From the NCBI GenBank assembly GCA_028284075.1, contig JANQSL010000070.1:41480-105479 (forward strand): a stretch of DNA of 64,000 bases, written 5' to 3'. Source of the stretch: Candidatus Sumerlaeia bacterium (lineage in GTDB: Bacteria > Sumerlaeota > Sumerlaeia > SLMS01 > JAHLLQ01). How positions within the stretch are numbered: position 1 is the first letter of the stretch; every line of letters starts with the position of its first letter. Position numbers and translations under genes: made by a program. Below the pieces are notes generated by a model. That model saw only the letters and a list, made by a program, of their open reading frames with translations, did not search any database and was not told the origin of the DNA. Shown piece after piece: positions 34,521 through 55,900 of this stretch.

Positions 34521-34580
34521 GGAAGCGATTTACTCCGATTGGCGAGACACTATTTTTACGCTTGTCGAAGAGCAAGCCTA

Positions 34581-34598
34581 TTTTTACCTGTGTAAAAA
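34581..34598. promoter_or_regulatory. candidate BlaI operator palindrome TTTTTAC-ctgt-GTAAAAA
   Basis: Perfect 7-bp inverted repeat ~60 nt upstream of the blaI-family gene. An extra TTTTTAC half-site sits at 34554-34560. Resembles the TACA/TGTA-type operators of this family. Confidence 0.35.
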
Positions 34599-34746
34599 TA
34601 TCGTGGCTTTCAGGCATGGCTACATGAGCGTTCCCAATTGGGTGCTCCTGTGAAAAGGGAGTGCTCTTGCGTTGTTCACCCGTTGGTTTTCAAGGACTTG
34701 CCGTTAAGCTGTTTAGCCCTCTCTCCTCCTGACCTTCAGAAGGCGC

Positions 34747-35379: not shown

Positions 35380-35502
35380 GAACAGCAACCTTTCCGAGTT
35401 CTGAGATGTGTGCGTTTCGAATTCCTTTGTGTCGCAAGGGAACTTCAAATGACTTTGGATGTCGGTGAATCGTCCTTTCCACATGATCCGCATGTGAGAG
35501 AA

Positions 35503-37233: not shown

Positions 37234-37234
37234 T

Positions 37235-39803: not shown

Positions 39804-40643
39804 TTATTCTTTTGTTTTATGGATGAAATCCATCACGAGGTTGCGGGAAACGGCCAGGCGATAGTTGCGGGTGGACCGAATATCATCCATGGGCGCCAGT
39901 TCCTCCATCAGTACCACGGCGGCTTCTTCCGGTGAGGCACCTCCGGCAATGGCTTTCTCGGTCTTTAGGGCGCGCAACGTCGTGGGTCCGACGGATCCCC
40001 AGGCGAGTTTGGTTTCATGGTCTGTCCTGATGCCGGCCACAACAACCTTGCTGATAGCCTGTGCAGCCCGTGTTCCGACCTTGCGGTAGTAATGGCGCGC
40101 ACCGTCCGGTGGTGCCGGTAGAATGATTTCTGAAATCAGTTCGTCTGAACGGAGGATCGTTTTGCGATAGCCGGTATAAAACTCGTTGATGGAAATAACG
40201 CGCTCACCGCTGCTGCTAAGGAGACGAATGTTCGCCTCGTACACAAAAAGCGCGGGGACCGTGTCGGCGGCGGGAGATCCGTTGACGATATTGCCGACAA
40301 GCGTTCCCCGGTTTTGAATCTGGAGGGCGCCGGTGACTTTCGCGGATTCCACCAGCAAAGGATAGCGTTCACACACAACGGGGTGATGACGAACGTCGGT
40401 GTAGGTTGCCAGAGCTCCGATGATCAGCGAACCGTCGGACTCACGAATACCTCGCCAGTCGCCTGCGAGTTGATGCAGGCTTTGAACAGGACAGGGTGCC
40501 AGAAGTCCTTCGTTTAAGAGGACCATGACTTCCGTGCCGCCCGCTATCGGCAGCAGGTTCTCAATCGCAGCCTTTTGCTCCAGAGCCTCCTCAACACCAA
40601 CAGGAACGTACGCGCGATACCGGACAGGATTGGATGCGATCAT
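39804..40643 (-). CDS. xanthine dehydrogenase-family FAD-binding (medium) subunit
   Basis: CO-dehydrogenase-flavoprotein-like fold (IAGGTEV...). Start at the verified ATG MIASNPVRY, overlapping the 2Fe-2S subunit stop. Confidence 0.75.
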   Translation of the reverse strand: MIASNPVRYRAYVPVGVEEALEQKAAIENLLPIAGGTEVMVLLNEGLLAPCPVQSLHQLAGDWRGIRESDGSLIIGALATYTDVRHHPVVCERYPLLVESAKVTGALQIQNRGTLVGNIVNGSPAADTVPALFVYEANIRLLSSSGERVISINEFYTGYRKTILRSDELISEIILPAPPDGARHYYRKVGTRAAQAISKVVVAGIRTDHETKLAWGSVGPTTLRALKTEKAIAGGASPEEAAVVLMEELAPMDDIRSTRNYRLAVSRNLVMDFIHKTKE

Positions 40644-41119
40644 TCCGGGTGTCCTGTTTTTGCGGCCTGCTCCATCGCGCGAAAGATCGCGCTGTATCCG
40701 GTGCAGCGGCAGAGGTTGCCTTCCAGAGCTTCGCGCAGGCCGCCGGGAGCCCGGTCGGGATGACGGAGGTGATGAACACCTGCCATAACCATTCCCGGTG
40801 TGCAGATACCACACTGGGCACCACCACATTCGAGAAACGCCTGTTGCACGGGGTGCAATATTTCCTCGCCGTTTTCCGCGACGCGGGCAAGTCCCTCCAC
40901 TGTTTCAATTTCAGCTCCCCCGGCCTGCATGACAGGAACCATGCAACTCATAACCAGCTCATCATTCATGATAACCGTACACGCCCCGCACTCGCCTTCT
41001 CCGCATCCATACTTTGTTCCCGTCAGCCGGCAGCTTTCACGTAAAACATCCAACAGCGGCATCATGGGATGCGCGTCGGTTTCATACTCGCGTCCGTTGA
41101 TCGTCATGCGGATAGTCAT
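40640..41119 (-). CDS. xanthine dehydrogenase-family [2Fe-2S] (small) subunit
   Basis: Plant-type ferredoxin cysteines CGEGECGACTV and second-cluster cysteines CGGAQCGICTPG. Confidence 0.8.
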   Translation of the reverse strand: MTIRMTINGREYETDAHPMMPLLDVLRESCRLTGTKYGCGEGECGACTVIMNDELVMSCMVPVMQAGGAEIETVEGLARVAENGEEILHPVQQAFLECGGAQCGICTPGMVMAGVHHLRHPDRAPGGLREALEGNLCRCTGYSAIFRAMEQAAKTGHPE

Positions 41120-43296
41120 TTGAGGATGTCCTCGGGGCGGATTGGGATCGAAACAATGTTCTGTCCCGTCGCATGAGCCACGGCGTTTGCAATCGCGGCG
41201 GGCGGACCATCCATTGGAAGTTCGCCAACACCTTTTGAGCCGAACGCTCCGATGGGATTGTGATGCTCAACAAATTCCACCACCATGTCCGGACCGTCAG
41301 CGGATGTGGGAATAATGTAGTTGGTGACGCGTGTATTTTGCATAAGTCCCTCTCTCAGCACGACGTCCTCACATGTTGCCCAGCCTGCTCCCTGTGCCAT
41401 TCCTCCCTCAACCTGGCCCACTGCAAGGACCGGATTGATGACGCACCCGATATCATAGATGCCCCACATTTTCTCGACACGAAGTTCCGCAGTCACGCTG
41501 TCGAGGACGATTTCCGCGACGTTGCACCCCCAGGAGTACGCACCATATGCGCAGCCCTGGTATGTTTCCTCGTTCCAGACCAGTCCCGGCGGCGGTTCGT
41601 AACGCGCCTCGGCACGAAGAGAATCCATCGCGGCCGCTTCGGCAACATCGCGACCATTGAGTTTCTCTCGCATCTGGCGTGCTGCTTTCTCAACAAGGCC
41701 GCCGACGATGGAGCAGGTGCGCGAGGCAACGGTCGGACCGCTGTCCGGGACCGCGCCGGTCTCCGGCTTGCGAAATCGAATTTGCTCAATGTTGATACCA
41801 AGGCCTTCGGCGGCGATTTGAGCAAAAACGGTTTCCGTTCCCTGGCCAATTTCCGTCGACGAGACCTGGATTTCCACGGTTCCGTCGGACTGCGCTTCAA
41901 GGGCTACGACACTACTGAGGTAAACTTCACCGGAACCCGTGAAGCCGGTACCGTGATAAAAAACGGAAAGCCCCATTCCATGTCCTGACCCACATGGGGA
42001 GCTTTGCTGTTTCGCGCGGTAGTCAGACAGCTCCAGAGCCCGATCAACGATGTGGTCGAGTTCCGGATCCTCTTCGACAATCTGAGAAGTGGGTAACACG
42101 TCGCCACGCTGCAAAAAGTTTTTCCTCCGCAGCTCGATGGGGCAGATGCCGAGGAGTTGCGAGAGACGATCGAGATGACGCTCGATGGCAAACTCACTCT
42201 GAGGTGCCCCGAAGCCGCGGAATGCTCCATAGGGAGGAGAATTAGTGAACCAGCACAGGCCATCCATTTTTGCCGCAGGCCAGCGATAGGGACCGCCACT
42301 ATGGAGAAGGCCGCGTGAAAGAACAACAGGCGACAATGTCAGATAGGCGCCACCGTCTATATGAAAGGTGACCTCGATGCCCTTGAAAACTCCCTCTCTT
42401 GTACATGCCGTGCGAATGCGTGTGATCGAAGGATGGCGTTTTGTCGAGCACGCCATATCCTCGGCGCGGTCGTATATCAGGCGAACCGGTTTGCCCCCGG
42501 CCTTGCGCGACAGCAGCGCAGTGTGAATGGCCACCATGCTGGGGAATTCCTCCTTGCCGCCAAAGCCGCCACCTGTCGTTTCCTGAACGACACGGACCTG
42601 ATCATCCCGCTCAAGAGCAAAAGCGTTTTTGACCGCTTTGTGAACGTAATAGGGGCACTGATTTGATCCGTGCAGAACAACGGTTTCATTCTCCCACCAT
42701 GCAATGAATCCGTTTGGCTCTATATAGACGTGCTCCTGAGCTCCGGTGGCGTATTCTCCTTCAAAAACAATGTTTTCTCCGGAAAAGGCCTGCTCTGTAT
42801 TTCCATGCCGAATCGCAAGATCCTTAAGGACACGCCCCTGTTCCATTTCGAAGATGCCGGGATCCTTCTCATAAACAATTTCAATGGCGCGTGCGGCTTC
42901 CTGCACAAGGCCCGGATCCTCATGGGCAATGAGGAGAATGGCTTCCTGATGATGCCGAACGATACTATCCACCAACGCAGGCTGCTCGTTTGTAATCAAA
43001 GCGACTTCGTTGACCGGCAGATCCTTTGCCGTGACGATTGTGAACTCATTCCATGGAAAACCTTCGGGGAAGCGGATGTCCCTGACTCGACCTGCGGCAA
43101 TGGTGGTGCGAATCGTTCGTCCCGTCAGGGCTCCTTCCACATGCATGTCGTCAATATAGCGCGAGCGACCGGTAAGCTTGTGGGCACCTTCGCGACGGGT
43201 CACGGAACGACCCACATACCGTAGTTCATGATGTTCGGGAGGCGAAACTGTCATGTGCTCTCGAGAAAACTCTCCATCGGGACCTGAATGTTTCAT
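41116..43296 (-). CDS. xanthine dehydrogenase-family molybdopterin-binding (large) subunit
   Basis: Aldehyde oxidase/xanthine dehydrogenase a/b hammerhead and MoCo domains. Alternative start at 43254. Confidence 0.8.
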   Translation of the reverse strand: MKHSGPDGEFSREHMTVSPPEHHELRYVGRSVTRREGAHKLTGRSRYIDDMHVEGALTGRTIRTTIAAGRVRDIRFPEGFPWNEFTIVTAKDLPVNEVALITNEQPALVDSIVRHHQEAILLIAHEDPGLVQEAARAIEIVYEKDPGIFEMEQGRVLKDLAIRHGNTEQAFSGENIVFEGEYATGAQEHVYIEPNGFIAWWENETVVLHGSNQCPYYVHKAVKNAFALERDDQVRVVQETTGGGFGGKEEFPSMVAIHTALLSRKAGGKPVRLIYDRAEDMACSTKRHPSITRIRTACTREGVFKGIEVTFHIDGGAYLTLSPVVLSRGLLHSGGPYRWPAAKMDGLCWFTNSPPYGAFRGFGAPQSEFAIERHLDRLSQLLGICPIELRRKNFLQRGDVLPTSQIVEEDPELDHIVDRALELSDYRAKQQSSPCGSGHGMGLSVFYHGTGFTGSGEVYLSSVVALEAQSDGTVEIQVSSTEIGQGTETVFAQIAAEGLGINIEQIRFRKPETGAVPDSGPTVASRTCSIVGGLVEKAARQMREKLNGRDVAEAAAMDSLRAEARYEPPPGLVWNEETYQGCAYGAYSWGCNVAEIVLDSVTAELRVEKMWGIYDIGCVINPVLAVGQVEGGMAQGAGWATCEDVVLREGLMQNTRVTNYIIPTSADGPDMVVEFVEHHNPIGAFGSKGVGELPMDGPPAAIANAVAHATGQNIVSIPIRPEDILK

Positions 43297-43466
43297 CCTC
43301 GTGCGACGGCAGGTCTCGTCAACCGATATTGCCGTAGGCTTGTTCCAAACTGGCCGGCGAGGATCGCACGACAGCGTTTCTTTGCTTGCAGCGAGGCGCC
43401 TGTGGTTCTCATCCTCGTAGTCTTAACGCTGCCCGGCAAAGCCGGGCCAACAAAGGATATTATTGA

Positions 43467-44648
43467 ATGAGTGTGCTTCCCGCTCCCCTTAATCCCCCTG
43501 ATCGTGTACTTCTCGGTCCCGGCCCCAGCGATGTCTCCTCTCGTATTCTGCGAGCCCTTTCGGCACCGACCATCGGCCACCTGGACCCACATTACCTGGA
43601 GCTGATGGATGAGGTTCGGTCAATGCTGCGAGAGGTTTTCCGGACAGAAAACGAGCTGACCCTCGCCGTTTCCGCGACGGGTATGGCGGGAATGGAGTGC
43701 ATCATCTCGAACCTGCTGGAGTGTGGGGACGAGATGATTGTTTGCATCAACGGTGTTTTCGGCGGGCGGATGGCGGATATGGCCTCCCGGCAGGGAATCG
43801 TTGTCCACAAACTCGAGGCGGAATGGGGCCGGGTTTTTGATCTCGCGCAGATCGAAGAGGCCTTCAAGAGGCACCCCGGTGCCAAGGCGATCGGTATCGT
43901 GCATGCCGAAACCTCGACGGGCGCTCACCAGCCTATGGATGGAATTGGAGAACTCGCCCACCGGAATGGCTCCCTTCTGATTGTGGATGCGGTCACTTCT
44001 CTCGGGGGTGTGGATGTTCGTATCGACGACTGGGGGGTCGATGCGTGTTACAGCGCGACACAGAAGTGCCTGTCCTGTCCTCCGGGGCTGGCCCCCGTGA
44101 CGTTTTCAAAGCGAGCCGAGGAGAAGATGGCGGGTCGGACATCAAAGTGTGTCTCCTGGTACCTCGACGTGAGTATGGTGCGCGACTACTGGGGGAGTGC
44201 GCGTTCTTATCATCATACCGCACCCATTAATATGACGTATGCTCTTCGCGAAGCGTTATTGATCATTTTGGAGGAGGGGCTTGATGTTCGATTTGCCCGG
44301 CATGAACGGAATCATCGTGCTCTTCGGGCGGGTCTTGAAGCGATGGGTGTCTCCTATATCCCGCAGCATTCGTTAACGACACTCAATTGTATTGGCATTC
44401 CCGACGGGGTGGATGACGTCGTCGCGCGCAAACATCTGCTGGAGCAGTATGGGATCGAGATTGGCTCGGGCCTGGGGCCCTTCAAGGGCAGAGCCTGGCG
44501 AATCGGCCTGATGGGCGAGTCCAGTAGTGAAAGGAATGTAATGCTTGTTTTGAGTGCGCTCGAGTCGGCACTCACGAGACAGAATGTTTCCTTCAAGGAA
44601 GGCGTCGGACCGGCGGCGGCACAGGCAGTTTATGGCTCTCGCGACTGA
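43467..44648 (+). CDS. class-V aminotransferase (serine-pyruvate/alanine-glyoxylate type; candidate ureidoglycine-glyoxylate aminotransferase PucG-like)
   Basis: AGT-family fold with PLP-Lys region TQKCL. Divergent from the XDH genes and followed by the uricolytic genes. Confidence 0.7.
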
Positions 44649-45879
44649 CCAACGAAGCAGCGCCACTCGCGTGATGGAACGATGCGCCCGGCTTGCCGAG
44701 TTCACCGAAGAACCCGGACACATAACCCGAACCTACCTCTCTTCATCAATGCTTGGTTTACACCGCGAGGTTTCTGACTGGATGAGAGAGGCGGGTTTGG
44801 AGGTACGCGTCGACAACGCCGGCAACATTGTGGGCAGACGTTTATCCGGCACAAGGGACGCGAAGGTTTTTACAATCGGGTCACATCTGGATACGGTTCC
44901 CAACGCAGGTCGATATGACGGTATACTCGGGGTGATTGTTGGAATTGAAGCTGCAGGGATTTTGCGCCATGAGTCATTACCTTTCGATCTCGAGGTTGTG
45001 GGCTTTTCAGAAGAAGAAGGTGTTCGGTTCAACATGCCGTTTATCGGGAGTCGAGCTTATGCGGGTACGTTTGACTCCTCACTTTTGTCGCTCAGCGACG
45101 CACATGGAGAGACTGTCGCAGACGCTATTCGTTTCTTCGGCCTGAATCCGGACATGATCGGAGAGGCAGCAGTTTCATCGGAGGATCTGCTTGGATTCCT
45201 CGAGGTGCATATTGAGCAGGGACCGGTTCTTCAGCAGCGCGGCATGCCGGTCGCGGCTGTAGAGCATATATCCGGTCAGACCCGCCTGCATGCCGTTGTT
45301 ACCGGTGAGACCCGTCACGCGGGTACAACCCCGATGAACGCTCGTCATGATGCTCTTGCAGGTGCTTCTGAGATCGTTCTTGCCGTGGAACGGCTCGGAA
45401 TCGAGGGCGCTGCTGATGTCATGACGGTTGGCCGCCTGGTTGTATCTCCAAACGTTCCCAATTGTGTGCCCGGATCCGTTGCCCTGACGGTGGATATCCG
45501 ACATGCGGAAGACGCTCGTCGGGCGAAAGCGGAAGCACAGTTGATGCAAAAGGCGGAGCGTATTGCCACTGATCGCGGATTGATGTTTCATCTCACGGAC
45601 CGGCGCGAAACACCATGTGTTTTGTGTAACGGTGATTTGACGGACTGCCTTGCGGAATCCATCGCGGTCGCAACTGAGCAGCCGGCGTTTCGTCACTTCA
45701 GCGGGGCGGGTCACGACACAATGGTTATGGCGCAGGTGACGCGGACAGCCATGCTGTTTGTGCGTTGCCGCGACGGCATCAGCCACAATCCGGAGGAAAG
45801 CGTCACGATCGAGGATGTTGGCGTTGCCGTTGAAGCGACCGTTGATTTTCTGCGCAGGCTGGGGAGGCGGGCTTCCTGA
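44632..45879 (+). CDS. allC: M20-family amidohydrolase, probable allantoate amidohydrolase
   Basis: AAH/carbamoylase-type M20 fold ([15 protein letters not shown]; EEEGVRF). Start uncertain: ATG at 44632 overlaps the upstream gene by 17 nt, with an alternative ATG at 44674. Confidence 0.65.
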
Positions 45880-45966
45880 AGCGCTCCATGCTTCCAAAGC
45901 CCGGTATTTTCGCTTGCCGAGTAATGATGGGTTGAGTCTGATCAATTTTTCAATGGAGGCCGTTTT

Positions 45967-46716
45967 GTGCTGGAATCGTTTGGAAGCACCCGGACAAGTG
46001 TTCAAGGTAACCACGCGCTGATCGCCCCGGACTCACACGTCGTCTCAGCATTGCCGGGATGGTCGAAAACCGATGCAGTCATACTGATTTCTCCACAGAT
46101 GGGAGCGCGGTTCTGTATGTTCTTCGCCGTCATGCAACGCGGTGCAAAGAGCGCTCCTGCAGCAGAAGGGATGGAGAGATTCGCCTACGTGCTTGAAGGA
46201 GAGATTCGCATCCGGGAAGGCGGGAAAGTTCATGCGCTTAAACCGGGCTCATACGTTTTCTTCCCTCCTGACAGTGAGCTGACGATCGCGGCTGCCATGA
46301 ACTCGCGATTGGTGCTGTTCGAAAAGCCGTGGTGTCCGTCGAGTAGCGGTGAAAAGCCGGGTTTCCTGTGTGGACATGAAAAAAAATGCAAAGCCGAACC
46401 GTTTCTTGGCGATCCCGACGCACGACTCAAAACACTCCTCCCGGACGATCAGGGTTTCGACATGGCTGTGAATCTGTTTTCCTTCAAGCCCGGTACCACC
46501 CTTCCTTTCGTGGAGACCCATGTTATGGAGCACGGACTTCTGATGGTCGAGGGGGGCGGCGTATATCGTCTGGATGATTCTTGGTATCCCGTGCAGAAAA
46601 GCGATGTGATCTGGATGGCTCCGTATTGTCCTCAGTGGTTTGTGGCTGCCGGCAAAAAACCGAGCGCGTATTTGTACTACAAAGATGTGCAACGCGATCC
46701 TCTGACAATGACATGA
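45967..46716 (+). CDS. bicupin, probable (S)-ureidoglycine aminohydrolase
   Basis: Size and two cupin halves consistent with AllE/UGlyAH. GTG start. Sits between two M20 amidohydrolases. Confidence 0.6.
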   Translation: MLESFGSTRTSVQGNHALIAPDSHVVSALPGWSKTDAVILISPQMGARFCMFFAVMQRGAKSAPAAEGMERFAYVLEGEIRIREGGKVHALKPGSYVFFPPDSELTIAAAMNSRLVLFEKPWCPSSSGEKPGFLCGHEKKCKAEPFLGDPDARLKTLLPDDQGFDMAVNLFSFKPGTTLPFVETHVMEHGLLMVEGGGVYRLDDSWYPVQKSDVIWMAPYCPQWFVAAGKKPSAYLYYKDVQRDPLTMT

Positions 46717-47987
46717 AACTGAAGCGTCCCGCCACTCCCCTCTCTGTCAATGGCGACCGGGTTTGCGCCGAAATACAGGAATTATCACAATTCATGGATG
46801 GAGAACCGCCGGGTGTCACACGGGTGGTTTTCACGGAGGCGGATCGGCAGGCGCGTGCGTGGTTGAGGGCGAAGTGCGTGAATTCAGGTCTCGTCACAAG
46901 GGAGGATGGCGTCGGGAATTTTTTTGCCCGTTGGGTCGGCTCTGAAGCGAACACGGCGGCCGTCGGCACCGGGTCTCATTGCGATGCAATTCCGAACTCA
47001 GGCGTCTACGATGGAACTGTAGGCGTTCTTGGAGGTCTCGAAGCGATTCGTACTCTGCAGGAATCAGGTTTCAAGCCGCGCCGAAGCATCGAATTGCTTA
47101 TGTTCACCTCAGAGGAGCCAACCCGGTTTGGTATTGGTTGCCTGGGCAGCAGACTCTTGAGCGGCCGCGCGGATATTGGTTCCATTGACCGGTTGCTTGA
47201 TGGCGAGGAAATGTCTGTGCGTGAAGCCGCAAGGCAGTCCGGATTCAATGGCGACCTGGAGAATGTATGTCTCTCATCAAACTACTACAGCCATTTTGTG
47301 GAGCTTCATATTGAGCAAGGTCCGGTCCTCGAGTGCGAAAGCATTCCGATTGGGGTTGTGACCGCAATTGCAGCTCCCGCCGCGCTCCGAATTATGTTTA
47401 AGGGGGAAGGCGGCCATGCAGGTACTGTATTGATGTCAGGCCGCCATGACGCACTGACGGCTGCGGCTGAGCTGGCCCTGGAGGTTGAGCGCGCGGGCCG
47501 GGAAAGCGAAAGCGCCGACACCGTTGCCACGACTGGTGTCTTCCGCCCTTTCCCGGGAGCCGTGAACAGCATTCCTTCACAATGTCTGTTGGAGATTGAC
47601 GTTCGCGACACCTCCGAGAAGTCGCGGAATCGGGCTGTCGACCGCATCGTTTCCTTCGCTCATCAAGTTGCGGGGGAGCGTGGTGTCGATGTGCTGGTTG
47701 AAACAATCAACTCAGACCCTCCGGCCGTCTGCGATACGAGCGTCGTCGAGGCCGTTCAGGCATCAGCATCCGCGGAGAGCCTGGCAACACTGGACCTTGT
47801 AAGCCGCGCTTACCATGACTCTCTTTTTATGGCGACCCTGACGCGCACGGGAATGATCTTTATTCCATGCCGCAATGGCATCAGTCACCGGCCTGAAGAG
47901 TATGCCACTCCGGAGCATATTTGCGGAGGTGTGGCTGTCCTCGCCCGGACGCTGGCTGCGCTGTCTTTGTCAGAGGAGGAAGCATAG
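46713..47987 (+). CDS. M20-family amidohydrolase, paralog of the upstream one (candidate ureidoglycolate amidohydrolase)
   Basis: Same fold signatures (GSHCDAIPNSGVYDG; SEEPTRFG). ATGA overlap with the upstream stop. Start at the verified ATG MKLKRPATP. Confidence 0.6.
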   Translation: MKLKRPATPLSVNGDRVCAEIQELSQFMDGEPPGVTRVVFTEADRQARAWLRAKCVNSGLVTREDGVGNFFARWVGSEANTAAVGTGSHCDAIPNSGVYDGTVGVLGGLEAIRTLQESGFKPRRSIELLMFTSEEPTRFGIGCLGSRLLSGRADIGSIDRLLDGEEMSVREAARQSGFNGDLENVCLSSNYYSHFVELHIEQGPVLECESIPIGVVTAIAAPAALRIMFKGEGGHAGTVLMSGRHDALTAAAELALEVERAGRESESADTVATTGVFRPFPGAVNSIPSQCLLEIDVRDTSEKSRNRAVDRIVSFAHQVAGERGVDVLVETINSDPPAVCDTSVVEAVQASASAESLATLDLVSRAYHDSLFMATLTRTGMIFIPCRNGISHRPEEYATPEHICGGVAVLARTLAALSLSEEEA

Positions 47988-47992
47988 CGATC

Positions 47993-49447
47993 ATGGACAT
48001 CACTCGGGAGTCTGAAACAAAATCCGTCGATTTTTCCACCGCCAATGCGGAGGGGCTGCGTGCGCTGGAGAACGCCGTACATCGCGACCTGGAATTTCTA
48101 CAGTATCCCCGGCGTGAATGGGTTTCACCGCGAACAGCAGCTGATGGTCGCCGGATTCTCGATGTGCTTGTTATCGGCGGTGGCCAGAGCGGACTTGTAA
48201 CGGCGTTTGCTCTGATGCGCGAGCGAATCAACAACATCCTCGTGATCGATGAAAACGATGAAGGTCTCGAAGGACCGTGGCTGACGTTTGCGCGTATGAA
48301 AACACTGCGCACTCCAAAGTATCTGACAGGCCCGGATCTCGGTATTCCAAACCTGACGCCGCGCGCATGGTTCGAGGCGCAGTACGGAGAGGGAAGCTGG
48401 GAGGGGGTTGGGTTGGTCCCAAAAGAGGAATGGGCGCGCTATCTGGCATGGTATCGCAGATTACTCAAGATTGCCGTCCGGAACAGGACGCGGGCTGGTG
48501 CTATTGAGTGGTGGGAGGCTGAGGAGTGCTTTTGCATTCCCATCGTGTCCGAAGACGGACCCGGCGAGCTGCTGGCGCGCAAGGTTGTACTGGCGACGGG
48601 CATTTCGGGATCCGGTCAATGGCGTGTTCCCGACTTCGTGACGGACGAACTGCCGAGGCACTTTTATTCCCATACACGCGAGGATATCGATTTCGATGCG
48701 CTTCGCGGGAAACGTGTCGGTGTTCTTGGCGCGGGGGCCTCTGCATTCGATAATGCCAGCCTCTCTCTCGAAAACGGCGCATCGGAAGTCCATCTCTTCT
48801 TTCGGCGCAAGGAGCTTGTGCGCGTGAACCCGTATCGCTGGGCGGAGTTCAGCGGGTTTCTCAGGCATCATCGCGATTTGCCGGATGACCTGCGCTGGAA
48901 GTTCATTCACAAGATCATCTGTATGGGACAGCTTCCCCCCGCGGATACGTTCGAGCGTGCACGGCGACACCGTAATTTTCACCTTCATCCGGGATCCGCG
49001 GCTCACGGTATTGCTGTCGGTGACAAGGATTTCGTTCTGAAAACCGCTAATGGAGAGCACACGCTTGACTATCTGATTGTTGGTACAGGCTTCGTTACCG
49101 ACCTTTCGTCCAGACCGGAGCTACAGAAGTTCAGCTCGAGCATTGCACTTTGGGAGGATCGTTTTTCACCACCGGCGGATGAGTGCCTCGAAGACATGCT
49201 GAGGCATCCCTACCTTGGGCCTCACTTTGAACTTACCGAAAAAAATGGTGGTGAGGCTCCATGGCTGTCTTCTATTTTCAACTATACATTCGGATGCCTG
49301 CTCAGTCAGGGATTCGGAGGTGCCAGCATCAGTGGTATGAAGTACAGTGTGCCCCGGCTTGTCGAGGGCATCACCGGCCAGCTCTATCGCGATGACATCG
49401 ACCAGCACTTCGAGTCGTTGGAATCATTCAACCTCCGGGAATTTTAG
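47993..49447 (+). CDS. FAD/NAD(P)-binding oxidoreductase, candidate FAD-dependent urate hydroxylase (HpyO-like)
   Basis: Two dinucleotide-binding motifs (VIGGGQSGL; VGVLGAGASAFDNA). Embedded between ureide-hydrolysing genes and allantoinase. No other urate oxidase in the locus. Confidence 0.5.
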   Translation: MDITRESETKSVDFSTANAEGLRALENAVHRDLEFLQYPRREWVSPRTAADGRRILDVLVIGGGQSGLVTAFALMRERINNILVIDENDEGLEGPWLTFARMKTLRTPKYLTGPDLGIPNLTPRAWFEAQYGEGSWEGVGLVPKEEWARYLAWYRRLLKIAVRNRTRAGAIEWWEAEECFCIPIVSEDGPGELLARKVVLATGISGSGQWRVPDFVTDELPRHFYSHTREDIDFDALRGKRVGVLGAGASAFDNASLSLENGASEVHLFFRRKELVRVNPYRWAEFSGFLRHHRDLPDDLRWKFIHKIICMGQLPPADTFERARRHRNFHLHPGSAAHGIAVGDKDFVLKTANGEHTLDYLIVGTGFVTDLSSRPELQKFSSSIALWEDRFSPPADECLEDMLRHPYLGPHFELTEKNGGEAPWLSSIFNYTFGCLLSQGFGGASISGMKYSVPRLVEGITGQLYRDDIDQHFESLESFNLREF

Positions 49448-49456
49448 TTATCATCC

Positions 49457-50809
49457 ATGACAGGCACTCGCATTCTTAGAAGTCACCGGGTTGTTCTTCC
49501 GGATGGCGTTCGCCCCGCTACTCTTGTCATTGAGGATGGTGTTTTCAGCTCGATCACCGACCATGAAGCAAATATCCCCGGCGATTCTGTTGAGGATTTC
49601 GGAAATCTGGTGATTTCACCGGGCGGCATTGATGTTCATGTGCATGTCAACGAGCCAGGACGAACAAACTGGGAGGGCTTTGAAACGGCAACGCGAGCCG
49701 CCGCCGCCGGCGGAACGACGACAATTGCCGACATGCCACTCAATTCTCTTCCCGTAACGACATCCCGTAATGCGCTTCGTGCAAAGATTAAAGCCATGAC
49801 CGGGAAACTACAGGCAGACGTTGCTCTATACGGCGGTTTGATTCCCGGCAACGTGGCCGAACTCGAAGGGCTCGTGCAGGGCGGTGTTGCGGGCATCAAG
49901 ACGTTTCTCATTCCTTCAGGAATTGATGAGTTTCCCGCCTCCGGGGAAGCGGACCTTCTTCCCGCCGCAAAGGCGCTGGCTGCAGAGGGGCGGCCGCTTC
50001 TCGCACATGCGGAACTCGAACCGGCTGTTCCTTCGGTCTCTCCAAAGGGACTGTGGAGCCACATGGACTGGCTCGAATCCCGGCCAGCGGAGATGGAGAG
50101 TCGCGCTATCAAAATGCTGGTAAACATCGCCGCTGAAACTGGAGCACACATTCATATTGTTCACGTGGCTTCAGCTGAGGCGGTTGATGTGATTCGCAAT
50201 GCGAAAACTCGCGGAGTTCCGGTGACAGCTGAGACATGCCCTCACTATCTGGCTTTTTGCGCTGACGATGTTCCACCCGGAAACACACTCTATAAGTGCG
50301 CTCCTCCTCTTCGCGAACCCCACCATCGAGAGGCACTCTGGCAAGCGCTGCGAGACGGAGCTCTCGACATGGTTGCCACGGATCACTCACCCTCACCGCC
50401 TGAGGTAAAGGCGCTGGAGACGGGCGACTTCCGGGCTGCATGGGGAGGAATTTCATCAATCCAATTTCTCCTCTCCGCGACGTGGACAGAGGCACGGAAA
50501 CGCGGGTTTACATTCGAGGAACTGGCTGCATGGCTGTCAGTATCTCCCGCCTCTCTGTTGGGGCTCAAAGATCGCAAGGGATGTATCGCCACGGGATTTG
50601 ATGCTGACATGGTTGTCTGGAATCCGGACGAAGAGTTTGTCGTGGAGGCGGGTTTTCTGAGAACTCGTCATCGGATTTCACCCTGGATTGGGCGTAATCT
50701 CTTTGGCCGTGTCGAGGAAACGATATTGCGCGGAGAGAGTGTTTATCGTTTCGGATCCGAAGTCGCGACAAAACACGGAGAATTTCTTTCACGCAAAGGC
50801 CAGCCATGA
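49457..50809 (+). CDS. allB: allantoinase (cyclic amidohydrolase)
   Basis: GGIDVHVHVNEPGRTNWEGFETATRAAAAGGTTT metal-binding region. Context. Confidence 0.8.
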   Translation: MTGTRILRSHRVVLPDGVRPATLVIEDGVFSSITDHEANIPGDSVEDFGNLVISPGGIDVHVHVNEPGRTNWEGFETATRAAAAGGTTTIADMPLNSLPVTTSRNALRAKIKAMTGKLQADVALYGGLIPGNVAELEGLVQGGVAGIKTFLIPSGIDEFPASGEADLLPAAKALAAEGRPLLAHAELEPAVPSVSPKGLWSHMDWLESRPAEMESRAIKMLVNIAAETGAHIHIVHVASAEAVDVIRNAKTRGVPVTAETCPHYLAFCADDVPPGNTLYKCAPPLREPHHREALWQALRDGALDMVATDHSPSPPEVKALETGDFRAAWGGISSIQFLLSATWTEARKRGFTFEELAAWLSVSPASLLGLKDRKGCIATGFDADMVVWNPDEEFVVEAGFLRTRHRISPWIGRNLFGRVEETILRGESVYRFGSEVATKHGEFLSRKGQP

Positions 50810-51309
50810 ACCTTGCCGATCTTAATGCTTTTTCTGTGGATGCCGCTCGTGCGGAATTCCTGCGTTGCTGTGGATCCTTAAAATGGGCCAACGCCATGGT
50901 GGACAAGCGCCCTTATAATTCGGTGGAGGATTTGTTCGAGTGGTCCGGTCAGGTGGCAGGGCGCCTTGAGAGAAATGACTGGCTGGAGGCGTTTTCTCAT
51001 CATCCCCGTATTGGAGATATGGAAAGCCTGCGAGCAAGGTTTACGATAACAAAGGACCTGTCTCTGGCGGAGCAGGCCGGAGCGGCCGACGCATCCGAAG
51101 AGGTTATTCAGGCGCTTGCCCGGGAGAACGACACGTACTTTAATCGGTTTGGGTACATCTTCATTGTTTGTGCGACAGGAAAAGGAGCGGCGGAAATGCT
51201 CGACATTCTTCGTTCACGGTTGTCCAATAATCCTGAACAGGAACTTCTGATCGCAGCCGGCGAACAGAACAGAATCACACAACTCCGACTGGAGAAACTC
51301 TTCTCATGA
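50806..51309 (+). CDS. uraD: 2-oxo-4-hydroxy-4-carboxy-5-ureidoimidazoline (OHCU) decarboxylase
   Basis: OHCU decarboxylase family with the HPRIG motif. ATGA overlap with the allantoinase stop. Confidence 0.8.
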   Translation: MNLADLNAFSVDAARAEFLRCCGSLKWANAMVDKRPYNSVEDLFEWSGQVAGRLERNDWLEAFSHHPRIGDMESLRARFTITKDLSLAEQAGAADASEEVIQALARENDTYFNRFGYIFIVCATGKGAAEMLDILRSRLSNNPEQELLIAAGEQNRITQLRLEKLFS

Positions 51310-51650
51310 GCGGTATTACCAGCCATGTACTCGACACATCCCTTGGTACTCCGGCGGATGGTCTTCGCATCGTGCTTGAGCGACGATCAAACACGAATAA
51401 ATGGACAGTTCTCGGAGATCTTGAGACGAATGCAGACGGCCGCGTGCCAGGGCTTTTTCCCGAGACCACCCGACTGGAAGCGGATTCGTACCGTATAACC
51501 TTCCATACGGGCACCTATTTCAGGAAAACAGGCCGTCCGGTGTTTTATCCCGTTGTGCATGTGCATTTTGAAATTACAAATACCACTGAACACTACCATA
51601 TCCCGCTGCTGTTGAGCCCCTTCGGCTACAGCACATATCGGGGAAGCTGA
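51306..51650 (+). CDS. uraH: 5-hydroxyisourate hydrolase (transthyretin-like)
   Basis: Transthyretin fold start HVLDTSLGTPA and C-terminal YRGS signature. ATGA overlap with the upstream gene. Confidence 0.85.
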   Translation: MSGITSHVLDTSLGTPADGLRIVLERRSNTNKWTVLGDLETNADGRVPGLFPETTRLEADSYRITFHTGTYFRKTGRPVFYPVVHVHFEITNTTEHYHIPLLLSPFGYSTYRGS

Positions 51651-51664
51651 TGCGGCGACTGTCC

Positions 51665-52450
51665 TCAATAGCAGGTCGTCAGGGCTCCATCCACAAGAAT
51701 CGTTTGCCCTGTCACGTATGTGTTTGCGGGAGAGCATAGAAACGCGGCGACACGGCCGAATTCCTTCGGATCACCATACCTTCCGACAGGAATGGCTTTC
51801 TGCTCCAGAGTCTTCACCTCTTCGAGCGACAGTGATTCACGCTTGGCACGTATCCCGTCCAATTGTGCAACCCGATCCGTATCGAACCGTCCCGGGCACA
51901 AAACGTTCAGCAGAATATCGCGGTCCCCGTATTCGATTGCGAGCGATTTGACCAGTCCGGTAATTCCAGTCCGAAACACGTTGGAGAGCAGGAGATTTGG
52001 AAGGGCCATGCGGGTGGATGAGGAAGCGATAGTGACAACGCGTCCACCATTTTCCTCCAGATATGGAAGGGCTTCGCGGACGGAGCGTACGATACTCATC
52101 AAGGTCAGCTCGAAGGCCTGCCTCCATGCATCGTCATCAAACTTTGCAAATGTTCCGGCAGGGGGTCCCCCGGCGTTACAGACAAGGGCATAGAGGCTGC
52201 CGCATTTATCGATAGTTGTGTTGATGGCTGTGACAATACTGTCGGTTTTTGACACATCACCGACAACGTAGTCGGGACGATTCCCCGTCTCCCGTTCTAT
52301 TTCGCTCTGCGCCGCCCGGAGGCGATTCTCCTCGCGTGCAACCAGTACAACACGCGCTCCCTCGCGTGCCAGCTCCAGTGCACAACCTTTGCCCAGACCA
52401 GCACTCGAAGCGAAAACAAGCGCCCCTTTTCCGTTCAGGTTCAACTCCAT
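51665..52450 (-). CDS. short-chain dehydrogenase/reductase (SDR)
   Basis: [14 protein letters not shown] coenzyme motif and YxxxK region. Start at the verified [12 protein letters not shown]. The tracked ORF has a 57-aa extension. Confidence 0.75.
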
Positions 52451-52622
52451 AACAGATGACTCCGTAAAAATCGACAATAACGTACAGATAGCTGATTTAT
52501 CGGGTGCGAAGCAAGTGCAGCCTTGTTTCAGCAAGAATCGCGTTGCCCATGATGGCCACCGTCGGTTTTTACAGGCACCTTCAGCCAATGAAGAAGCAAA
52601 TACACCAGGGGAGATTTCCACG

Positions 52623-53864
52623 ATGATGATTCATCTTCGACTGTTGTTGCCTGCAATTCTGACTCTGCTCGTTTCCAGGGCTTTTGGGGCGGCCGATTCC
52701 GAAGTTCGCGCAATCTGGATAACGCGGTGGGATTACAAGACTGCGGAGGATGTCCGGAAAATTGTCGAAAACTGCGAAACGATTAACACTAATCTTTTGT
52801 TGTTTCAAGTACGGGGAAACGGTACCGTGTTTTACCGTTCCGAAATCGAACCCTGGGCATGGGAGCTGACCGGCGACGATGCATCAACAACGGGAAGAGA
52901 TCCTGGATGGGACCCTCTTGCCGTTGCCATTGAGGAGGCACACGGGCGTGGTCTGGAGCTGCATGCCTATGTCAACGTGTTTCCCGCATGGCGTACTCAG
53001 GAGTACGCGCCGCGGGATTCAGGCCAACTCTGGTGGGACCACCCGGACTGGTTCATGTGCGACGCGGCCGGACGGCGTATGATACCACGCGACCCGAACC
53101 ATGATGAGAATGTTTCACGTCCTTGGTACAGTTTCATCAGCCCGGGTGTTCCTGAGGTGCAGGACTATCTGGCGTCCCTGTTCGAAGAGCTGGTCGCAAA
53201 CTACGATGTTGATGGCGTGCACTACGATTACATTCGTTACCCTCACGAAATTCATGAAGTCGATCCGGACTACAAACAACGAGAGAAGGCCTTGGGCAAC
53301 TGGTCCTATGATCCCATCAGTCTCGCGCGTTTTTCAAGGGAGACAGGTGTATGCTCCCCCGATGAGAGTCCGGAGGACTGGACACGGTGGCGGGCCTCTC
53401 AGATTTCAGAAATGGTTCGTAAGGCGGACGAATTGATGCGGAAGCACGACCCGGACATCTTTGTTTCGGCCGCTGTCATGGCGGATCCTGATGATGCGTA
53501 TCAAACAAAGTACCAGGACTACATCACGTGGATGAAGCAGGGCTGGCTGAATGCCGCCATCACGATGGGTTACACCAGTGACAACGAGAAGTACGAGAAG
53601 CGCATGCGGAATCTTGCTTCGCGTCGTGTTGAGGGGCAGTACATTGTACCTGGCCTTGGCTTCAAGAATGACGGAGAAACCATCAAAAAACAGATTGAGC
53701 TGACTCGTCAGTACAATATGGACGGCTTTAGCGGCTTTGCGTATTCGCATCTGTTTGATCGGAACAACGGTCATGCACCGAAGCAACTCGCCACGGAACT
53801 GCTTGAGGGACCGATGAAGGAAAAGGCCTCACTACCCTGGGAGGAGAGCCCTTCGAAGGACTAG
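52623..53864 (+). CDS. secreted glycoside-hydrolase-like family 10 (GHL10/PF02638-type) protein
   Basis: Signal peptide [31 protein letters not shown]...LFQVRGNG...HAYVNVF blocks typical of YngK-like GHL10 TIM barrels. Confidence 0.6.
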
Positions 53865-53955: not shown

Positions 53956-54139
53956 CCACTTGACACGTATTGCGTCTTCGCATCGTTTGCGGAATCCGAT
54001 TCGCAGAGGAACGACGGTGCATGATGCGCTGATGCATCCTGCAACCGGTTTCACAGCTTGTTTTTGCCATGGCCCGGACCTCGCGCGCGTTTTCGTTGAA
54101 GGCAAAACAGCCTTCGAATTGAAAAACGGAGGTCTTTCC

Positions 54140-55900
54140 ATGAAGACCCAACATACTTGTCGTCCCTTTGGTAAAGCTCTGCCGGTTGGTGCGATATGTT
54201 TCGTTCTTGCCGGAGCAGGTTCACCATCGACTGCACGGCCCGACAAACCGCGCTCCCACGGAGATTCAAATCCGATCGTCGAAGTCCGGACGATCGACGG
54301 CATAAACAATAATCCTTCGGAACCATTGTGGGGGGCGGCGGGTGAATCGTTTGTGCGTTTCGCAACTGTTGCGTATGAAGACGGTGTTTCTCTTCCCTCC
54401 GGTAATGACAGGCCTGGCGCTCGTGCGGTGAGCAATGCTGTGTGTGCACAAACGGAGAGCCTTCCGAATGATGTCGGCTATACCGATTACCTCTGGCAAT
54501 GGGGGCAGTTTCTCGATCACGACATTACCGAGACGCCGCTCCTCGATCCGGCCGAACCTTTTAACATTCCTGTTCCTACTGGTGACATATGGTTCGACCC
54601 GACTTTTACCGGAACGGTCATTATTCCCATGAACCGCTCGTTCCATGAAACGGATCAATCCGGCGTTGCTCAACAGGTGAATCTGATTACCGCCTATGTC
54701 GATGCCTCCAACGTCTATGGTTCGGATGAGGAACGTGCACATACGCTCCGGGCCAACGACGGCACCGGACGGCTGAAGATCAGTGATGGTGATTTATTGC
54801 CTTACAACACCGAGGGTCTTGAAAATGCCGGCGGAACATCTGCAACATTGTTTCTCGCAGGTGATGTTCGCGCCAACGAACAGATCTACCTGACGGCGAT
54901 GCACACGCTGTTTGTTCGTGAACACAATCACTGGGCGGATTTGATTCGCGAACAGAGCAACTCGATGAAGAAATCCCGTTTTCGTGAACGAACCCTTCCG
55001 GGGGTTACACCGGACATGTCCGGTGACGATGTCTACGAACTGGCGCGGGCCATCGTTGGCGCGGAGATGCAGGTTATTACGTATCGGGATTTTCTTGGGA
55101 CTCTGTTGGGACACGACGCACTACCACCATATCGCGGTTACAGGCCAAACATCAACGCAGGGATCACCAATGTCTTTGCCACGGCGGCCTTTCGTCTCGG
55201 TCACACAATGCTCTCATCCGAACTGTTACGTCTCGATCGAAACGGAGAACCCATCGAAGCGGGCAACATCGCACTGGCTAACGCGTTCTTCTCACCCTCG
55301 GAGATCACTGACAACGGCGGGATCGAACCGCTGCTTCGCGGTCTGGCCGCGCAACCCGCCCAGTCCATCGATCCCCATCTTGTCGACGATGTGCGCAATT
55401 TCCTCTTTGGCCCTCCGGGATCCGGCGGATTCGATCTGGCCTCATTGAATATTCAACGCGGCCGTGACCACGGGCTTCCATCCTACAATCAGGTGCGCGC
55501 GGACTTCGGACTCAATCATGTTTCAGAATTCAGCGAAATCTCTCGGAACCCGGAGCGACAGGCCAGTCTGTCAAGTGTATACGCCTCACCCGACGACATC
55601 GATCCATGGGTCGGTATGCTGAGTGAGGATCACGTACCGGGTGCACTGGTGGGAGAGACATTATTTACGATTCTGATTGAACAGTTCGGTGCGTTGCGGG
55701 ACGGAGATCGGTTCTGGTATCAGAACTCCCTTCCGAGAGAGCTTCAGAATATCGCCGAGGCACAAACACTGGCAGGCATCATTCGCCGCAACACGACAAT
55801 TCGCGGTGAAATTCAGGACGACGTTTTCAAGGTCAGGCAGCAGAACGAAGAAAAGCCGCCGCATCGTGAGCGCGACAGAAGAAGTCGTCGAGGACGTTAA
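54140..55900 (+). CDS. secreted animal-type heme peroxidase (peroxidase-cyclooxygenase superfamily)
   Basis: Distal-site motif WQWGQFLDHD, catalytic Arg/Glu block FLAGDVRANE and proximal His motif AFRLGHTML. Signal peptide from the verified ATG (MKTQHTC...), with GGAGG RBS upstream. Confidence 0.85.
   Translation: MKTQHTCRPFGKALPVGAICFVLAGAGSPSTARPDKPRSHGDSNPIVEVRTIDGINNNPSEPLWGAAGESFVRFATVAYEDGVSLPSGNDRPGARAVSNAVCAQTESLPNDVGYTDYLWQWGQFLDHDITETPLLDPAEPFNIPVPTGDIWFDPTFTGTVIIPMNRSFHETDQSGVAQQVNLITAYVDASNVYGSDEERAHTLRANDGTGRLKISDGDLLPYNTEGLENAGGTSATLFLAGDVRANEQIYLTAMHTLFVREHNHWADLIREQSNSMKKSRFRERTLPGVTPDMSGDDVYELARAIVGAEMQVITYRDFLGTLLGHDALPPYRGYRPNINAGITNVFATAAFRLGHTMLSSELLRLDRNGEPIEAGNIALANAFFSPSEITDNGGIEPLLRGLAAQPAQSIDPHLVDDVRNFLFGPPGSGGFDLASLNIQRGRDHGLPSYNQVRADFGLNHVSEFSEISRNPERQASLSSVYASPDDIDPWVGMLSEDHVPGALVGETLFTILIEQFGALRDGDRFWYQNSLPRELQNIAEAQTLAGIIRRNTTIRGEIQDDVFKVRQQNEEKPPHRERDRRSRRGR

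Follow-up and report, generated by a model that had tools for sequence, protein, structure and literature searches.

The flavoprotein gene at 47993-49447 on the forward strand of the window (the whole 64-kb stretch of DNA analysed here) very probably, at about 85%, encodes a soluble FAD- and NAD(P)H-dependent monooxygenase of the HpyO type (EC 1.14.13.113), which would hydroxylate urate and probably prefer NADPH. Support for urate hydroxylation comes from a gap in the encoded pathway, the lack of three other types of urate oxidase in the window, a conserved gene order, gene fusions, the predicted fold and the names that annotation pipelines give to relatives. Such an enzyme would fill the single missing step in the purine-nitrogen recycling pathway of the organism, and its assignment to the HpyO type leaves the current understanding of purine catabolism unchanged.

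The ureide operon and its flavoprotein gene

The flavoprotein gene is located in a tightly packed eight-gene ureide operon, which is divergent from a xanthine-dehydrogenase-like (XDH-like) operon. The relevant features, including two redox genes beyond the operon, are:

39804..43296, - strand: divergent XDH-like operon (profile matches), which would supply urate
39804-40829, - strand: XDH-like FAD subunit (profile match); true start probably near 40640
40640-41119, - strand: XDH-like 2Fe-2S subunit (profile match)
41116-43296, - strand: XDH-like Mo subunit (profile match)
43467..44648, + strand: class V aminotransferase, first operon gene (profile match); probably a PucG-type glyoxylate or ureidoglycine aminotransferase
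44632..45879, + strand: allantoate amidohydrolase (M20); NF006775, 497.7 bits (cut-off 479); probably starts with the in-frame ATG at 44632
45967..46716, + strand: (S)-ureidoglycine aminohydrolase; TIGR03214, 296 bits (cut-off 200)
46713..47987, + strand: second M20 amidohydrolase, 424 aa (profile match, start from the gene call), ending 5 nt before the flavoprotein ATG; probably a ureidoglycolate amidohydrolase, an assignment that is not secure
47973..47979, + strand: ribosome-binding site GAGGAGG of the flavoprotein gene, read from the sequence, 13 nt before the ATG
47993..49447, + strand: flavoprotein gene, 484 aa plus stop codon; predicted HpyO-type NAD(P)H/FAD-dependent urate hydroxylase (urate to 5-hydroxyisourate)
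49457..50809, + strand: allantoinase AllB; TIGR03178, 521.8 bits (cut-off 357.85)
50806..51309, + strand: OHCU decarboxylase (profile match), with a 4-nt overlap between its start and the stop of allB
51306..51650, + strand: 5-hydroxyisourate (HIU) hydrolase, transthyretin-like (profile match), which would consume the predicted product of the flavoprotein; start overlaps the OHCU decarboxylase stop by 4 nt
51665-52621, convergent to the operon: SDR, outside the operon
53960-55900: animal-type haem peroxidase, outside the operon, 2.3 kb downstream

The flavoprotein gene is separated by 5 nt from the gene upstream and by 9 nt from the gene downstream, after which the two 4-nt overlaps follow. 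Its longest mechanical open reading frame (ORF) has a TTG start (47921-49447); the ATG at 47993 lies behind the TAG of the upstream gene (47985-47987), and the location of the ribosome-binding site inside the 3' end of that M20 gene suggests that translation of the two is coupled. The initial annotation had placed an ORF at 47993-49447, which is indeed a real gene with an ATG and a GAGGAGG, and had given its size as 485 aa, a figure that counts the stop codon. It had also correctly named OHCU decarboxylase, HIU hydrolase and allantoinase as neighbours and placed the gene between ureide hydrolases and allantoinase, as is the case with the two M20 amidohydrolases and the ureidoglycine aminohydrolase upstream and AllB downstream.

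Across the ureide operon and the divergent XDH-like operon, the conversion of urate to HIU is the sole step from xanthine to glyoxylate that lacks an assigned enzyme, and the flavoprotein is the only oxidoreductase inside the ureide operon. No match to Uricase (PF01014), FAD_binding_3 (HpxO type) or DUF989 (PuuD) was found by Pfam among about 55 large ORFs of the whole window, which agrees with the earlier claim that neither a uricase nor an HpxO-type hydroxylase is present. The accompanying claim that the flavoprotein is the only unassigned redox enzyme is true inside the operon but too strong for its surroundings, given the SDR and the haem peroxidase nearby; in the neighbourhood survey described below, neither of these recurs beside homologues elsewhere. 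The haem peroxidase was rejected as the main urate oxidant because it is located outside the operon and is not a recurrent neighbour of the homologues.

No purine or xanthine riboswitch reached the gathering score when the whole window was scanned with Rfam. Over 43000-52800, predicted promoters and terminators were no more numerous than expected by chance, with no obvious terminator within the operon. The ORF at 43293-43592 (- strand), considered as a possible regulator, is probably spurious, since it has no Pfam match and overlaps the first operon gene.

In the proposed model, the flavin would be reduced by NAD(P)H and react with O2 to give a C4a-hydroperoxyflavin, which would hydroxylate urate, presumably supplied by the divergently transcribed XDH-like enzyme, at C5, yielding 5-hydroxyisourate and water without release of H2O2. 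HIU would next be converted to OHCU by the co-translated HIU hydrolase of the same operon, to (S)-allantoin by OHCU decarboxylase and to allantoate by AllB. Finally, allantoate amidohydrolase, ureidoglycine aminohydrolase and the second M20 amidohydrolase would produce glyoxylate, ammonia and CO2.

Sequence motifs and predicted fold

Two dinucleotide-binding motifs and an arginine pair are found in the protein:

48176..48193, + strand: FAD-binding Rossmann motif GGGQSG, residues 62-67 (G62-G-G-Q-S-G67), from the sequence and the homologue alignment
48728..48745, + strand: NAD(P)H-binding Rossmann motif GAGASA, residues 246-251 (G246-A-G-A-S-A251), from the sequence and the alignment
48803..48808, + strand: R271-R272 (HLFFRR), where the second strand of the NAD(P)H domain ends, invariant in the homologue alignment

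Both motifs had been recognized in the initial annotation, at residues ~40 (GxGxxG) and ~265 instead of the positions given here. G62, G64, Q65 and G67 of the FAD motif are invariant in the alignment of 15 homologues, and GAGASA is preceded by a conserved H227-T-R segment at a spacing that we take to be that of the FMO-type linker motif. By analogy with PvdA and SidA, R271-R272 may bind the 2'-phosphate, which would give a preference for NADPH.

A search with the profiles PF13454 and PF13434 had been proposed as a check, and in the Pfam search both match above their gathering scores: PF13454 (NAD_binding_9) with 33.6 bits (cut-off 21.8) over residues 60-204, and PF13434 with 37.3 bits (cut-off 21.3) in a partial match covering profile positions 92-227 of 339. 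Pyr_redox_3 and Pyr_redox_2 score slightly higher than these two. The same search gave no match of the protein to PF01494 (FAD_binding_3, the HpxO-type class A fold) or PF01014 (the Uricase T-fold), and none of the NCBIfam models scored above its own cut-off. The AF2 model (pLDDT 80, pTM 0.83) resembles class B (N-hydroxylase-like) flavin monooxygenases, its best structural matches being the NADPH/FAD N-hydroxylating enzymes 7us3, DesB, DfoA, PvdA and SidA (TM 0.6-0.7), to which the protein is 13-17% identical in the structure comparison. A sequence search of the PDB returned marginal matches alone (best 8acs, E = 5.5e-5) and no close solved relative.

Homologues, their genomic context and alternative roles

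The context of homologues with 47-63% identity was surveyed at 80 genomic loci, considering neighbours within 10 kb. HIU hydrolase is present at 56 of the 80 loci, allantoinase at 50, OHCU decarboxylase at 45 and XDH subunits at about 25; further recurrent neighbours are XdhC (the commonest of these, 15 loci), allantoicase, PuuE-type allantoinase, an amidase, DUF6986 and LysR, and no other urate oxidase is among the recurrent neighbours. An Abditibacteriota genome (L034) and the Sandaracinus-type loci L045 and L051 share the gene order of the window, and in Myxococcus sp. Y35 a minimal five-gene operon encodes, in a row, the flavoprotein as its sole redox enzyme, AllB, allantoicase, OHCU decarboxylase and HIU hydrolase. 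The flavoprotein is also found fused to partner domains. OHCU_decarbox-flavoprotein fusions occur in Steroidobacteraceae and Caulobacteraceae, with PF09349 carried by P0135 and 16 more proteins among the best 120 homologue matches, and XdhC-flavoprotein fusions (P0121, P0051, P0058 and others) account for about 10 of the same 120.

In the phylogeny, the window protein nests inside a clade with ureide-gene context, composed of Myxococcota, Abditibacteriota, Acetobacteraceae and the source organism. At 18 positions, the residues are conserved and shared between this clade and the OHCU-fusion clade but different in seven paralogs, of which five come from loci without purine genes nearby and two are fused to unrelated domains: Q65, F72, R76, T107, I204, W210, L245, F252, R282, E285, Q313, D318, T319, F329, H405, Y407, S447 and G448. 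The wider flavoprotein family is functionally mixed. Homologues at 38-41% identity (Ralstonia, Burkholderia, Rhizobium and Pantoea) are found in non-purine contexts, among them a Pantoea/Rhizobium operon with genes for LysR, the flavoprotein, a CMD protein and an amino-acid ABC transporter. No linkage to purine genes was seen for a Bacillus member or for the sister group from Obscuribacterales (57-60% identical).

This diversity bears on the reading that the flavoprotein is a monooxygenase of purine or N-heterocycle catabolism with a substrate other than urate, such as a different oxopurine or a by-product of the pathway, and that urate is oxidised from outside the window. Family members are located beside XDH-family genes without ureide genes (M. 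loti pML2037) and in unrelated operons, so the substrate range varies within the family, and our view covers 64 kb of the genome. Against this, HIU hydrolase and OHCU decarboxylase, which are not known to act on anything but products of urate oxidation, are the steadiest neighbours, the latter even being fused to the flavoprotein; the Myxococcus operon leaves the flavoprotein no other role and the neighbourhoods contain no other recurrent urate oxidase, which makes a different substrate improbable. A function as an accessory redox protein in the maturation of, or electron transfer to or from, xanthine dehydrogenase, rather than as a hydroxylase, would account for the XdhC fusions and for the frequency of XdhC as a neighbour. 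We regard it as very improbable, since many loci, including the Myxococcus operons, combine the gene with ureide genes in the absence of XDH or XdhC within 10 kb, the window has no XdhC match, the fold is that of an oxygen-activating class B monooxygenase, and the OHCU decarboxylase fusions tie the flavoprotein to the step after XDH.

It is hardly credible that the protein is a generic CzcO-like or SidA/IucD/PvdA-like N-hydroxylase, present in the operon by chance, with urate being oxidised by the haem peroxidase or non-enzymatically. Such a role would fit the PF13434 score, the N-hydroxylases as nearest solved folds, the animal-type haem peroxidase downstream and some of the automatic names of relatives ("SidA/IucD/PvdA family monooxygenase" from NCBI for some, "CzcO" from JGI for many). 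However, the PF13434 match is partial and identity to the solved enzymes low, ureide-gene synteny is kept across phyla, and the peroxidase does not recur beside the homologues. Moreover, among the window ORFs scanned, no siderophore, NRPS or other biosynthetic genes were found near the flavoprotein gene and no cation diffusion facilitator (CzcD-type) gene was detected, so the gene partner expected of CzcO is missing. Urate hydroxylation is thus the reading that we retain, and the initial proposal of the flavoprotein as the best candidate for urate oxidation is supported by the operon gap, the gene order across phyla, the OHCU decarboxylase and XdhC fusions and the class B fold.

Comparison with HpyO and other known enzymes

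Homologue searches and cluster look-ups gave the JGI name "FAD-dependent urate hydroxylase" for many close relatives. The window protein itself has no name in public sources, and its exact sequence is recorded on one NCBI contig and one Logan contig only. There is a gap in annotation: in that of NCBI, this large and well-conserved clade is labelled just 'NAD(P)/FAD-dependent oxidoreductase' or 'SidA/IucD/PvdA family monooxygenase'. Name-based pipelines also seem to spread the 'urate hydroxylase' label to paralogs in amino-acid-transport operons. The 18-residue signature, together with the OHCU decarboxylase and XdhC fusions, offers a practical way to separate true urate hydroxylases from these paralogs. 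Urate hydroxylases that work without H2O2 release also hold some interest as substitutes for therapeutic uricase.

Uricase and PuuD occupy the same position in the pathway (urate to HIU) but have unrelated folds and chemistry: uricase releases H2O2, PuuD is an integral membrane haem protein, and neither is encoded in the window. HpxO of Klebsiella and Acinetobacter shares with the flavoprotein the reaction, cofactor and cosubstrate predicted for the latter, as well as its predicted place ahead of HIU hydrolase and OHCU decarboxylase. They are non-homologous proteins; HpxO has a single-Rossmann class A fold (PF01494), whereas the flavoprotein has two Rossmann domains, one of them a separate NAD(P)H domain, in a class B fold. 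PvdA, SidA, DfoA, DesB and putrescine N-hydroxylase are the closest solved folds and have the same arrangement of FAD and NADPH domains. These enzymes act on amines in siderophore synthesis, while the flavoprotein is predicted to hydroxylate a carbon atom of an aromatic heterocycle in ureide catabolism; members of the SidA/IucD/PvdA group are recognized by a full-length PF13434 match and a siderophore or natural-product context, in contrast to the partial match and ureide operon found here.

HpyO, the FAD-dependent urate hydroxylase of Xanthomonas campestris, was reportedly first described by Michiel et al. in 2012 (Environ Microbiol Rep 4:642). We take the KEGG entry K22879, "FAD-dependent urate hydroxylase", to be that of HpyO. 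K22879 has been listed together with COG2072 (PMC13210998), and HpyO has been tied to the Pfam family NAD_binding_9 (PF13454), which was used to collect HpyO homologs, and apparently also to COG2072 (PMC4562309). No Xanthomonas sequences were found among the homologues of the window protein, of the flavoprotein part of the Steroidobacteraceae OHCU fusion or of a gammaproteobacterial 'Kentron' homologue, nor among the names of 30 cluster representatives, in the genome contigs scanned or, by tblastn, in the plasmid collection. HpyO and the window clade would belong to the same orthologous group or to sister clades, the flavoprotein being likened to HpyO via database links rather than by direct alignment. 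There is a small but real chance that the window clade is instead a separately recruited N-hydroxylase-like class B lineage that hydroxylates urate on carbon, with its own 18-residue signature, and is not orthologous to HpyO. If so, the lineage would lack any biochemically or structurally characterised member, and the occasional fusion to OHCU decarboxylase would hint at a hand-over of unstable intermediates.

The assignment to the HpyO type, which we favour, agrees with the HpyO-like layout suggested in the initial annotation, a suggestion that appears correct. The candidate thus belongs to a known enzyme type and not to a new one, and the label "non-canonical" was overstated. Like the flavoprotein of the window, HpyO is a soluble protein that uses FAD and NAD(P)H and carries a NAD_binding_9 signature, both being apparently of the COG2072 type (PMC4562309). 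Both are unrelated to HpxO and, in organisms without uricase (for the flavoprotein, as judged within the 64-kb window), are encoded together with urah and urad genes (PMC4562309).

The gap at urate in the ureide operon

The 484-residue flavoprotein is encoded by the fifth of eight closely packed plus-strand genes (43467-51650), with spacers of 5 nt upstream and 9 nt downstream; the final two junctions of the operon overlap by 4 nt. Together with a divergent xanthine-dehydrogenase-like (XDH-like) operon, these genes supply a candidate enzyme for each step from xanthine to glyoxylate except the conversion of urate to 5-hydroxyisourate (HIU), and the flavoprotein is the sole oxidoreductase within the ureide operon.

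Genes of the ureide operon and the divergent operon (window positions)
39804-43296, divergent from the ureide operon: XDH-like operon (molybdenum, 2Fe-2S and FAD)
43467-44648, +: class V aminotransferase (gene 1)
44632-45879, +: allantoate amidohydrolase (NF006775, above cut-off)
45967-46716, +: (S)-ureidoglycine aminohydrolase (TIGR03214, above cut-off)
46713-47987, +: second M20 amidohydrolase (gene 4)
47993-49447, +: flavoprotein (gene 5)
49457-50809, +: allantoinase AllB (TIGR03178, above cut-off)
50806-51309, +: OHCU decarboxylase (gene 7)
51306-51650, +: HIU hydrolase (gene 8)

The initial annotation had noted OHCU decarboxylase and HIU hydrolase at the locus and had placed the flavoprotein between ureide hydrolases and allantoinase; both observations hold, with the M20 amidohydrolase on its 5' side and AllB on its 3' side. 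Its further point, that neither uricase nor an HpxO-type enzyme is encoded here, agrees with a scan of about 55 large ORFs, spanning practically all of the 64-kb window, which gave no match to Uricase (PF01014), FAD_binding_3 (HpxO type) or DUF989 (the membrane urate oxidase PuuD). An Rfam scan of the window found no family, and counts of consensus promoters and terminators around the operon were at or below chance. Haem peroxidases can also oxidise urate, and a bacterial 'animal haem peroxidase' (PF03098, E = 8e-152; 53960-55900, +) is encoded 2.3 kb past the end of the purine operon; we rejected it as the main candidate, as it lies outside that operon and does not recur beside homologs of the flavoprotein elsewhere.

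The window also holds an apparently complete reductive pyrimidine-catabolism cluster (20760-30288, -), with two dihydropyrimidine-dehydrogenase-like subunits, an aldehyde dehydrogenase, a dihydropyrimidinase-like amidohydrolase, a class III aminotransferase, an NCS1 permease and a CN-hydrolase (β-ureidopropionase-like), so that, counting the purine genes, the window has two distinct modules for salvage of nucleobase nitrogen, with about 10 kb between them. At 31691-37257 (-), a DUF4252 protein lies between two M56 peptidase sensor proteins of the BlaR1 type, one bearing a DUF4097 'toastrack' domain, and a single 474-aa ORF (62131-63555, -) joins a domain of ribose-5-phosphate isomerase B (LacAB_rpiB) to one resembling transaldolase.

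Gene start, fold and proposed mechanism

The ORF is mechanically called from a TTG (47921-49447); an ATG at 47993, 5 nt past the TAG of the upstream gene and preceded by GAGGAGG at 47973-47979, together with homologs that align at 96-100% coverage from about residue 16-20 through the last residue, bears out the annotated frame 47993-49447. Its GC content is that of the surrounding DNA. Two dinucleotide-binding motifs, both invariant among 15 aligned homologs, are found at residues 62-67 (GGGQSG, FAD type) and 246-251 (GAGASA, NAD(P)H type); the two-motif layout described at the outset is thus correct, and the positions then given (about 40 and 265) were only approximate. The HMM check suggested there shows that Lys_Orn_oxgnase (PF13434, 37.3 bits) and NAD_binding_9 (PF13454, 33.6 bits) match above their gathering scores, as do Pyr_redox_3 (43.1 bits) and Pyr_redox_2 (42.4 bits). 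No NCBIfam model came near its cut-off (best ArsO, 34 bits versus 425).

AlphaFold2, run on the 15-sequence alignment, gave a confident model (mean pLDDT 80.3, pTM 0.83). In a Foldseek comparison with the PDB, NADPH/FAD N-hydroxylating monooxygenases rank first (TM-scores 0.6-0.7, identity 13-17%), including putrescine N-hydroxylase (7us3), DesB, DfoA, lysine 6-monooxygenase, PvdA, SidA and KtzI, a ranking by which the modelled protein is classed as a class B (two-Rossmann) flavin monooxygenase. A search of the PDB by sequence alone gave nothing closer than E = 5.5e-5, and neither approach turned up a close solved structure. In the mechanism we propose, FAD would be reduced by NAD(P)H, O2 would add to the reduced flavin to form C4a-hydroperoxyflavin, and this intermediate would hydroxylate urate at C5, yielding HIU and water. 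By analogy with PvdA and SidA, an invariant R271-R272 pair that follows strand 2 of the NAD(P)H domain suggests a preference for NADPH, and a conserved helical insert (about residues 280-325) is a candidate substrate-binding element.

Gene context, fusions and paralogs

The family is very large and well conserved: a word-indexed search returned more than 4,400 matches, the best 120 being 57-68% identical and 465-480 aa long, and an exhaustive search gave 1,750 clusters (50% identity) at E <= 1e-3, 439 of them at E <= 1e-30. When one genome of each species was scanned, 80 loci held homologs 47-63% identical to the flavoprotein, in Myxococcota, Obscuribacterales, Abditibacteriota, Acetobacteraceae, Azospirillaceae-like bacteria, one spirochaete and one Deinococcota MAG. 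Within 10 kb of these homologs, tblastn with the window's own genes detected HIU hydrolase at 56 of the 80 loci, allantoinase at 50, OHCU decarboxylase at 45 and XDH subunits at about 25. The order allantoate amidohydrolase, ureidoglycine aminohydrolase, M20 amidohydrolase, flavoprotein, AllB, OHCU decarboxylase, HIU hydrolase recurs in Abditibacteriota (locus L034) and in Sandaracinus-type loci (L045, L051). Myxococcus sp. Y35 has a reduced operon of flavoprotein, AllB, allantoicase, OHCU decarboxylase and HIU hydrolase, which leaves urate oxidation as the sole role for the flavoprotein. When the other neighbouring ORFs were clustered and the ten most recurrent groups scanned against Pfam, XdhC (15 loci), DUF6986 (14 loci), allantoicase, an amidase, PuuE-type allantoinase, LysR and APH kinase were found, three groups had no Pfam match, and none of the ten was an alternative urate oxidase. 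The DUF6986 protein (PF22484, about 456 aa), uncharacterised and absent from the window, is encoded directly 3' of HIU hydrolase in 14 Polyangia-type urate operons (e.g. L048:14634-16004).

A neighbour-joining tree places the window protein inside a clade with purine-gene context. Its nearest branch is Obscuribacterales (57-60% identity), where six loci (L001, L002, L008, L009, L018 and L027) have no purine-catabolic genes within 10 kb, the neighbours at L009 being TPR, PMT_2, MFS and pentapeptide-repeat proteins; this branch has either a different function or pathway genes that are not linked to it.

Fusions link the family to the same pathway. About 10 of the best 120 relatives carry an N-terminal XdhC, a fusion type also represented by proteins P0121, P0051 and P0058. 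Another large clade, whose members share 42-46% identity with the window protein, includes fusions with an N-terminal OHCU decarboxylase, as in P0135 from a Steroidobacteraceae genome; that domain (PF09349) is present on 16 more among the best 120 relatives of P0135, Caulobacteraceae included, and further fusions include P0343, P0347, P0348 and P0371. Fusion to the enzyme acting two steps downstream is independent and strong evidence that the flavoprotein has a part in the conversion of urate to allantoin. A Bacillus member of this clade stands alone.

Function is not uniform across the wider family. Ralstonia and Burkholderia homologs (38-41% identity) have no purine neighbours, and plasmid-borne paralogs of Rhizobium sp. 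CB3090 (L087) and Pantoea vagans (pPant1, L088), both matched at about 8000-10400 and also 38-41% identical, lie in a conserved operon that runs LysR, flavoprotein, hypothetical gene, CMD-family 'peroxidase-related enzyme', amino-acid ABC transporter. This subfamily, of which P0226 is a flavoprotein-CMD fusion form, probably acts on something other than urate, and fusions to TauD or CMD domains are seen farther out in the family. We compared 22 window-clade sequences (group A), 11 OHCU-fusion sequences (group B) and seven paralogs (group C; five have no purine genes beside them and two are fusions with TauD or CMD, domains unrelated to the pathway). Groups A and B share 98 columns that are identical and at least 90% conserved, of which 55 are conserved throughout group C and 18 are essentially missing from it: Q65, F72, R76, T107, I204, W210, L245, F252, R282, E285, Q313, D318, T319, F329, H405, Y407, S447 and G448, with R282, E285, Q313, D318 and T319 in the helical insert. 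Since B (42-46%) is scarcely closer to the window protein in overall identity than C (34-41%), these positions may plausibly determine specificity, and this residue pattern supports a single isofunctional urate group that would include the window protein. With this signature the urate-linked clades can be told apart from paralogs at risk of mislabelling by pipelines; the 'hpyO' reported in a Pantoea genome paper may be one such paralog.

Relation to known urate-oxidising enzymes

The pathway gap, conserved context, fusions, signature residues and fold all favour the original proposal that this protein is the best candidate for urate oxidation, and we put the probability that it is the urate hydroxylase of the ureide operon at roughly 85%. 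The enzyme type is already known, and was named in that proposal, so this is not a new solution to urate oxidation. Names of relatives are generic or conflicting: 'NAD(P)/FAD-dependent oxidoreductase', 'FAD/NAD(P)-binding protein' or 'SidA/IucD/PvdA family monooxygenase' at NCBI, whose resources hold no specific name or model for the window clade; 'CzcO' (the COG2072 name) or 'FAD-dependent urate hydroxylase' at JGI; and 'FAD-dependent urate hydroxylase HpyO/Asp monooxygenase CreE-like FAD/NAD(P)-binding...' in UniProt. The JGI urate hydroxylase name is carried by many proteins of both the window clade and the OHCU-fusion clade. Another KEGG orthology called 'FAD-dependent urate hydroxylase', K16839, is HpxO.

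Enzymes described as oxidising urate are of four kinds: uricase, which is cofactor-free; HpxO, a class A flavoprotein; HpyO of Xanthomonas, a flavoprotein not homologous to HpxO; and PuuD, a membrane cytochrome c protein (PMC4562309). In contrast to HpxO, the window protein has the predicted class B architecture. HpyO homologs were gathered with NAD_binding_9, the same Pfam model that the window protein matches, and a STRING figure labels a COG 'HpyO', apparently COG2072, the only flavoprotein COG near that label (PMC4562309); a 2026 genome paper gives K22879, 'FAD-dependent urate hydroxylase', and COG2072 for one same gene (PMC13210998). These Pfam, COG and KEGG links and the JGI names together assign the window protein, indirectly, to the HpyO family, in keeping with the HpyO-like comparison first drawn, and its clade is possibly a sister lineage of the characterised Xanthomonas enzyme.
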